Positions 21,725 through 22,651 of a stretch of 30,163 nucleotides of DNA are shown here, one piece after another. This stretch comes from a virus. Lineage: Duplodnaviria > Heunggongvirae > Uroviricota > Caudoviricetes. How positions within the stretch are numbered: position 1 is the stretch's first letter; the number at the start of each line of letters is the position of its first letter. Location: IMG/VR virus record IMGVR_UViG_2850796239_000002. One strand, written 5' to 3'. A program made the translations under genes and the position numbers. The notes under the pieces are model-generated. The model was given only the letters and a program-made list of their open reading frames with translations, made no database searches and was not told the DNA's origin.

Positions 21725-22651
21725 TCACTGCATCGATGAATAAAGAGATTTAATTTTATCTCCATTAATGTTTATATTTTCTTGATTTGTTCTTATTTGA
21801 AATATATTTTCACTCCCTCCTTCATAATGAAATCGATTCATGAGTTCCTGTAAAGGGCTCCACCTCCCACGATAAGTCTCACATAACTGCCACGACTTAT
21901 AGATATACTTCATAACAATGCCAGAAGTGTTTTTACACTGCTTATAGTGTCTTTCATCCACAATAGCAAAAAAAAGATCATAAATATGCTGTTCTAAGAA
22001 CCAATTACTATTTACCAATGTGAACTCTACAGTTCCTATATCATATTGATGCATCGCAGGGAGAAAAGCATAATAGTCATTCAAATTTACTGTGTATGAG
22101 AGTTTTTCTCCGGGTGATATTTCTATCCAGTCAGATTTTTTTATCCACAAATCAAATCGGCATGTAATTTTTCTTATATAATCTAACCGTATGTTATTTG
22201 TTACGATTAAAAAAGAACCACTGCACAAAGGAGAGTAAGGTGATTCATGGATGTTTGCTGGTAAATTCATCCGATGAACATAATACGAACTATTACTTTT
22301 ATTATGTAACGTTACATTTGCTGTAATTAATGATTTATTATGTTTTAATTGAAGGTGTGCGTAAATGTCCTTTTGTTCTTGAATTCGCTTACTCTCATTT
22401 AAGCTAATTTTATAGTATTGCCCCACATAATAAATCGTTTCAAATGGGTCGGATTCGTTATAATAAGTATAATCAGATAAGGATGCCAATGGGTATATGA
22501 CTGGTTTTTTATCATGCCATAATAGCTTACCATAACCATAATGTACATCCGCATTGAATGAGAAATTATCATATGCATATAATTTATTCTTGTGCATAAG
22601 AAATAAAAATAAAAAACGCGATGTATTTGTTAAGAACATAGATACACTCAC
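21725..22651 (-). CDS. Hypothetical protein, candidate immunity/partner of the upstream HExxH protein (308 aa, Tyr/Asn-rich, hydrophobic N-terminus)
   Basis: AT-rich ORF 72 bp downstream of the HExxH gene in the same orientation; N-terminal FLTNTSRFLFLFL hydrophobic segment. Confidence 0.4.
   Translation of the reverse strand: MSVSMFLTNTSRFLFLFLMHKNKLYAYDNFSFNADVHYGYGKLLWHDKKPVIYPLASLSDYTYYNESDPFETIYYVGQYYKISLNESKRIQEQKDIYAHLQLKHNKSLITANVTLHNKSNSSYYVHRMNLPANIHESPYSPLCSGSFLIVTNNIRLDYIRKITCRFDLWIKKSDWIEISPGEKLSYTVNLNDYYAFLPAMHQYDIGTVEFTLVNSNWFLEQHIYDLFFAIVDERHYKQCKNTSGIVMKYIYKSWQLCETYRGRWSPLQELMNRFHYEGGSENIFQIRTNQENININGDKIKSLYSSMQ

Follow-up and report, generated by a model that had tools for sequence, protein, structure and literature searches.

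The open reading frame (ORF) analyzed here lies on the minus strand of IMG/VR record IMGVR_UViG_2850796239_000002, a 30,163-nucleotide (nt) stretch of DNA classified as a Caudoviricetes virus (hereafter the window). It stands directly downstream of a gene for a 262-residue protein with an HExxH motif, for which the original prediction had put it forward as a candidate immunity gene. The region is the variable part of the Escherichia coli type VI secretion system 1 (T6SS-1) cluster, in which the intact gene order is vgrG (838 amino acids, aa), the 262-aa protein, a 306–308-aa hypothetical protein, a 404-aa hypothetical protein, tssM, tssA, and PAAR. The frame is uninterrupted from 22651 to 21725 and, counted from a GTG and with the stop codon included in its span, encodes the 308 aa initially called; the RefSeq annotation of its orthologues and their alignment nevertheless favor the ATG at 22639 (M5 of the listed ORF) as the start, which yields a likely product of 304 aa opening with MFLTNTSR. 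The E. coli orthologues (97.7–98% identical to the window protein) reach 308 aa because they combine the same ATG with two extra Phe-Leu repeats that are absent from the window allele. The 72-nt spacing reported between the two same-strand genes is likewise correct for the GTG, measured from the stop codon of the 262-aa ORF, and becomes 84 nt with the ATG start. The AT-richness ascribed to both genes is borne out by GC contents of 31.3% and 34.5%, against 54% in the adjoining vgrG and 50.8% in the window, and no terminator-like site was found in the gap between them, where the promoter and terminator scan is uninformative in such AT-rich DNA. An exhaustive HMMER search recovered 83 cluster representatives with conserved motifs, which excludes a chance ORF and establishes the frame as a real gene.

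The upstream gene encodes an intact zinc metallopeptidase resembling the M35 (aspzincin) family. Its HELTH motif spans aa 199–203 (nt 22904–22918) and is followed by an invariant aspartate, D220; the invariant residues of its family include H199, E200, H203, G214-G215, D220, and a C-terminal NxYNxExYF motif. The window toxin is 98.5% identical to the E. coli protein over 262/262 aa, and the RefSeq product name of the latter is, in one record, 'M35 family metalloendopeptidase'. The match to the Pfam model Aspzincin_M35 falls below threshold (E 0.0017), and a profile built from six sequences of the toxin family retrieved only M35 structures from the PDB (1g12, E 2.6e-4; AsaP1 2x3a, E 1e-3).

The function of a close orthologue of this pair has been addressed experimentally in E. 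coli PAR, where the genes studied were AKO63_2953 (VgrG), AKO63_2954 (DUF2345), AKO63_2955 (M35), and AKO63_2956 (PMC10673891, Commun Biol 2023). E. coli was killed when M35(PAR) was expressed from pET22b, a vector that directs proteins to the periplasm, but not by a construct carrying AKO63_2955-2956, and the authors named the AKO63_2956 product the cognate immunity protein (PMC10673891). On the PAR chromosome, a frameshifted vgrG is followed by the 262-aa gene, a 308-aa gene whose product (WP_001556809.1) is 98% identical to the window protein, the 404-aa gene, and tssM. The frameshift accounts for the two GenBank genes assigned to the PAR vgrG, which RefSeq labels 'frameshifted; internal stop' and the pieces of which are taken as separate VgrG and DUF2345 proteins in the published study (PMC10673891). 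Among complete E. coli genomes, the 308-aa gene is present in 197 of 5,426, with at least 95% identity in 196, and it is always chromosomal and single-copy.

Beyond E. coli, the immunity protein belongs to a diverged family. A word-indexed search went no further than the 90% cluster to which the protein itself belongs, which comprises 1,132 sequences; the 83 representatives of the exhaustive search (at 50% clustering) include 68 with E<=1e-10, are mostly ~280–315 aa long, and share 27–44% identity. Among the named members are proteins of E. coli, E. ruysiae, Escherichia sp. TW15838, Buttiauxella, and further Enterobacterales. The immunity protein has no match to a Pfam, NCBIfam, or PDB sequence family; matches to OmpX and hemocyanin sequences were rejected as noise. 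Synteny across genomes, which had been proposed as a check on the pairing, is preserved: in 9/9 diverged relatives, the position directly upstream is taken by an M35-like HExxH gene, seen in full or by its C-terminal end, whose product is 24–46% identical to the window toxin, and a PAAR-VgrG or a VgrG C-terminus like that of the window precedes the pair wherever the contig extends that far. In the two pairs that were compared directly, toxin and immunity protein diverge in step (46%/44% and 32%/37% identity). Two relatives of locus L005 in Escherichia spp., P0124 and P0127 (WP_000502244.1 and WP_249822542.1), present a single 594-aa ORF composed of the toxin, a 9-codon linker, and the immunity protein with its signal peptide, which may be a natural in-frame fusion or the outcome of stop-codon loss; they represent a second, diverged allelic pair, 44–46% identical to the window pair.

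The hydrophobic N-terminal segment that had been tentatively read as a signal or anchor is a predicted Sec signal peptide, and this is a family-wide feature. The cleavage site in the window protein was set by eye and alignment, not by a predictor. Signal peptide-like N-termini, defined by 10 or more consecutive uncharged residues (median 13), occur in 44 of the 50 homologues, and the typical arrangement consists of a basic n-region, the uncharged run, a small-residue cleavage site, and then a [K]YGYG motif. Conservation in the family reaches at least 90% for three cysteines (C139, C160, and C235), and the window protein has a fourth, C253; by analogy with PA0261 of Pseudomonas aeruginosa, this suggests a periplasmic protein with disulfides, as would suit protection from a toxin active in the periplasm. 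The hydrophobic core contains a Phe-Leu repeat, (FL)n, encoded by a hexanucleotide repeat, and aligned alleles carry (FL)3, the shortest form, in the window, (FL)4 in L001, and (FL)5 in PAR, L002, and P0001. Match spans of 927–945 nt across E. coli genomes suggest n = 3 to 6, of which 3–5 are verified by alignment, and the repeat might act as a slippage-prone tuner or switch of export efficiency.

Export bears directly on the other roles that had been entertained for the gene, those of a T6SS adaptor or of a second secreted cargo, which the position in a vgrG island and a size above that of many immunity proteins would favor. Adaptors and cargo of the T6SS reside in the cytoplasm and have no Sec signal, whereas the family carries Sec signal peptides and conserved cysteines, and an exported protein is hence neither. 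The protein furthermore matches neither DUF4123, DUF1795, or DUF2169 nor any other Pfam or NCBIfam model, and the orthologue rescues cells from the toxin (PMC10673891), so that an adaptor or cargo function appears hardly credible and finds no support here. Taken with the rescue by the 98% identical orthologue, the adjacency of the two genes in all nine diverged loci, the Sec signals, and the conserved cysteines support the immunity assignment. The adjacent M35-type toxin, delivered by VgrG, very probably has its periplasmic immunity protein in the product of this gene, for which we propose prodomain-like inhibition in trans.

This proposal stems from the fold of the protein and its homology to M35 propeptides. 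Modeling with AlphaFold2 on a single sequence was unusable (predicted local distance difference test, pLDDT, 32), and a model was therefore built with a 51-sequence family alignment, reaching a pLDDT of 82.9 and a predicted template modeling score (pTM) of 0.78. It features a nine-stranded beta-sandwich at aa ~92–209, a confident YGYG strand in the N-terminal extension, and a C-terminal region, helical in part, whose closing beta-hairpin is modeled with confidence. In a Foldseek search, the top four matches were all chains of the AsaP1 zymogen (E 2e-6 to 1.6e-5), and the next match followed at 1.8e-3. For profile comparison, full-length AsaP1-type genes were taken from 80 genome loci (Aeromonas, Lysobacter, Shewanella, and others), of which 65 were aligned; genome loci were used as the source after a 71-aa AsaP1 fragment query had given short fragments only, and a disrupted copy from Aeromonas salmonicida subsp. 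salmonicida (L016) was left out. In this last strain (ATCC 33658), asaP1 is reduced to a 231-codon C-terminal ORF without a proper start, and other Aeromonas species encode intact zymogens of 342–352 aa.

Aligned with hhalign, the 51-sequence immunity family matches the 65 zymogens with 96.4% probability (P 1.3e-9), aa 89–194 falling on zymogen residues 21–117. Controls with the reversed immunity alignment (P 0.085), with the reversed zymogen alignment (P 0.39), and with the immunity against the toxin family (P 0.25) gave no comparable signal. The matched zymogen segment falls within the propeptide, since it lies directly past the signal peptide and ~180 residues ahead of the HExxH motif at 296, and the mapping to these same residues identifies the part aligned by Foldseek as the prodomain. 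M35 peptidases are synthesized as zymogens whose N-terminal pro-peptides, of ~15–18 kDa, are inhibitory (PMC11985622). The propeptide of secreted M35 zymogens, AsaP1 among them, is the homologue of the central beta-sandwich of the immunity protein. The toxin family, in turn, aligns with the catalytic region of the zymogens (aa 146–207 on 254–304; 96.9% probability, P 1.3e-10). Each partner thus corresponds by homology, at a similar level of significance, to one half of a single classical zymogen. Because the window gene is a separate downstream gene with its own signal peptide, its product is a homologue of the M35 propeptide domain, not a propeptide. The size that had been noted as larger than typical for an immunity protein is explained by the prodomain-like sandwich together with its N- and C-terminal extensions.

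Homology to a propeptide could also be read as the mark of a folding chaperone or activation partner, an intermolecular foldase that makes the toxin active. The AsaP1 propeptide has a chaperone role in addition to its inhibitory one, which lends this reading some appeal. The Sec signals and conserved cysteines nonetheless describe an exported protein, whereas T6SS cargo folds and is loaded onto VgrG in the cytoplasm, and the PAR toxin is toxic without its partner, which abolished the toxicity (PMC10673891). A foldase is therefore very improbable. We lean towards an origin in which a secreted M35 zymogen supplied both members of the pair, by descent or by assembly from its two halves: the catalytic domain would have become a toxin loaded onto VgrG, and a prodomain homologue, having acquired a signal peptide and further modules, would have become the immunity protein that now inhibits it in trans. 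Inhibition most likely proceeds in the manner of a prodomain, by occlusion of the active site, as the homology to the zymogens suggests. In the proposed mechanism, the immunity protein would be synthesized with its Sec signal peptide and exported, would probably fold in the periplasm with disulfide bonds, and would there bind, and thereby block, toxin injected by sister cells. The prodomain-like sandwich would cover the active-site cleft of the toxin, possibly with the help of a disulfide-stapled Cys160 loop, and this loop, which may be tied by a disulfide to C139, is the candidate inhibitory loop.

Several observations weigh against this interpretation. In the alignment, the conserved 'Y.G...KR' loop of the zymogens faces the 'LDYLGxxC160xF' loop of the immunity family. 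In AsaP1, a propeptide lysine is reportedly inserted in the S1' pocket. The loop of the window protein around C160 has both Arg and Lys (RKITCRFDLWIKK), but no Lys is conserved across the immunity family in the loop aligned with the zymogen KR, and the details of the contact may hence differ from those in AsaP1. The immunity protein is also twice the size of an M35 propeptide, and inhibition could in reality reside in its YGYG extension or its C-terminal part. An alternative follows in which immunity is real and the sandwich is a mere scaffold, neutralization being effected by the YGYG extension, by the C-terminal domain, or by substrate shielding; the missing conserved lysine and the location of the KYGYG and IRSNQ..I.IDG motifs outside the propeptide-homologous region are in keeping with it. 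We regard this alternative as unlikely, given that the best structure and profile matches of the protein are, by a clear margin, to the prodomain that inhibits peptidases of the toxin's own family, which would be an improbable coincidence. The gene order, with the catalytic gene first and the prodomain-like gene second (the reverse of the zymogen), and the presence of extra modules imply that the pair did not arise by a simple gene split. As regards the immunity function itself, the correspondence between AKO63_2956 and the PAR gene AKO63_RS15265 is deduced from gene order rather than from printed sequence. In the window allele, moreover, the signal peptide keeps a hydrophobic core of just 7 uncharged residues, a shortening attributable to the contraction of the (FL)n repeat to n=3, and the core is longer in all but one of the scored family members. 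Lastly, the vgrG that precedes the pair is frameshifted in the window, and tssM has no match anywhere in it.

The toxin and the 304-aa gene are the only intact genes of the module in the window (Table 1). With a frameshifted vgrG, no tssM in the window, and a short signal peptide, the toxin can probably not be delivered from this locus. The immunity gene may hence serve as a defensive, orphan-style protection against toxin-armed relatives, or it may be a relic, and whether the window copy functions is uncertain given its short signal peptide and the broken secretion machinery. When queried with the intact 838-aa E. coli VgrG, tblastn returned matches in frames -3, -1, -3, and -2. A second vgrG N-terminal remnant (residues 5–81) is found at 28165–28394, past an insertion sequence (IS) with a DDE transposase ORF at 26889–28112. 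Upstream of this remnant, the minus strand carries at 28454–29951 two further AT-rich ORFs, of 296 and 205 aa, neither of which matches a Pfam family; they may constitute another effector-immunity or accessory pair of the island.

Table 1. Features of the locus and their positions in window coordinates.
Feature	Position	Strand	Basis
ORF as listed (308 aa from GTG)	21725..22651	minus	ORF listing
Likely coding sequence (304 aa + stop), immunity protein of M35-like T6SS toxin	21725..22639	minus	RefSeq orthologues and alignment
Predicted Sec signal peptide, aa 1–22, MFLTNTSRFLFLFLMHKNKLYA, cleavage before YDNF	22574..22639	minus	Eye and alignment
Hexanucleotide repeat TTTTAT/ATAAAA, ~3.2 copies, encoding (Phe-Leu)n, codons 9–14	22596..22615	minus	TRF
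N-terminal extension of mature protein, aa 23–88, [K]YGYG motif at aa 34–37	22376..22573	minus	Family alignment; model pLDDT 87–90 around aa 31–50
M35-propeptide-like beta-sandwich core, aa ~89–210, conserved N113, C139, C160, W171, Y199	22010..22375	minus	
C-terminal helical and beta-hairpin extension, aa 211–304	21728..22009	minus	Family alignment and model secondary structure
Cognate toxin gene, 262-aa M35/aspzincin-like zinc metallopeptidase, intact	22724..23512	minus	Profile matches, RefSeq name
vgrG pseudogene before the pair, split over at least 3 frames	23505..26018	minus	ORFs, Pfam and NCBIfam matches, tblastn
Remnant of conserved 404-aa downstream gene, residues 1–205, in-frame stop after codon 85	20856..21470	minus	ORFs and comparison

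The C-terminal extension carries the conserved C235 and an IR[ST]NQ..I.I[DN]G motif, as well as C253 in the window protein. On the other side of the pair, the 404-aa gene, which in E. coli sits between the immunity gene and tssM, has a product with no Pfam family match, and its surviving N-terminus in the window resembles a membrane segment. Beyond this remnant lies an IS block (~16828–20775), in which the IS family labels come from reading the translations alone: IS66-type ORFs of 115, 232, and 320 aa at 16828–18795, a plus-strand pair of ORFs at 18977–20199 that resembles a split transposase, and a further IS-like ORF at 20221–20775. The first ~16,500 nt of the window (~1–16500) correspond to the tail and baseplate region of a Mu-like prophage, with genes for a baseplate hub (6957–8027), a DNA-circulation protein (8027–9301), and a sheath (11995–13470), and with Gp36 and tail-S homologues at 15510–16489; an extra IS, with an rve integrase at 13971–14789, is inserted in this prophage.

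The immunity function of the gene product is already published for the PAR orthologue (PMC10673891), so that on this point the present analysis confirms an earlier reading and adds no new one. Annotations of the family still read 'hypothetical' and Pfam has no model for it; its members can now be named as immunity determinants that partner an M35-type T6SS toxin. No paper on the prodomain relationship was found, which is weak evidence of absence, since many subscription papers lie outside the search. If the relationship holds, this would be the first documented T6SS immunity protein derived from the pro-peptide of its own toxin and the first free-standing propeptide-like inhibitor for peptidase family M35. 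The homology provides a concrete, testable mechanism of neutralization, active-site occlusion, and a rare view of how an immunity protein may originate, the origins of most T6SS immunity families being obscure. It also suggests a search strategy, the survey of stand-alone prodomain homologues beside protease toxins, and the protein could be a possible template for the design of inhibitors against M35 virulence proteases such as AsaP1.

Among known systems, VgrG2b/PA0261 of P. aeruginosa likewise couples a periplasm-acting T6SS zinc metallopeptidase with an immunity gene directly downstream (PMC6899460). The PA0261 immunity protein binds its toxin and requires its signal peptide; its cysteines are conserved in part and it depends on DsbA (Wood et al. 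2019, PMC6899460), and genes of its family are small ORFs that encode lipoproteins in the Enterobacteriaceae (PMC6899460). The window protein, with 304 aa and no lipobox cysteine, does not fit that description of the PA0261 family. The toxins differ as well: that of P. aeruginosa is fused to VgrG2b, whereas the window toxin is a separate cargo, and its profile matches M35 structures in the PDB and not the VgrG2b C-terminal domain. The IPI/BsuPI protein of Bacillus subtilis (PDB 3isy) is also a beta-sandwich protease inhibitor, but it is cytoplasmic and targets a serine protease, and no family member matched the Pfam BsuPI model (PF12690) among the families listed.

Stand-alone propeptide homologues that inhibit a mature enzyme in trans are known from MEROPS families I9 (subtilisin-propeptide-like) and I29 (cathepsin-propeptide-like, e.g., CTLA-2). 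These inhibitors belong with another peptidase clan, have another fold, and are not members of toxin-immunity pairs, and we know of no free-standing propeptide-like inhibitor described for M35 or of a T6SS immunity protein of this kind.

The nearest relative is the AKO63_2955/AKO63_2956 pair of E. coli PAR, which shares the locus of the window, with a split vgrG, the 262-aa M35 toxin, the 308-aa protein, and the 404-aa gene. The PAR signal peptide carries (FL)5 against (FL)3 in the window, and the window T6SS is the more decayed of the two, with IS elements and the Mu-like prophage replacing the segment from the middle of the 404-aa gene through tssM/tssA. The PAR report, in its accessible part, applies the label 'immunity protein' without a fold, family, or mechanism (PMC10673891). 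Another close counterpart is the propeptide of the AsaP1-type zymogens (PDB 2x3a, 2x3b, and 2x3c), to which the immunity protein is linked by profile homology and which likewise pairs with a catalytic domain of the same family. Unlike that propeptide, the immunity protein is not part of the protease chain: its gene stands separately, behind that of the protease, and provides it with its own signal peptide. It is also about double the length, owing to additional modules at its N- and C-termini; the AsaP1 propeptide is removed by proteolysis on activation, and the immunity protein is not. Like the propeptide, the immunity protein is presumed to inhibit the catalytic domain with which it pairs.

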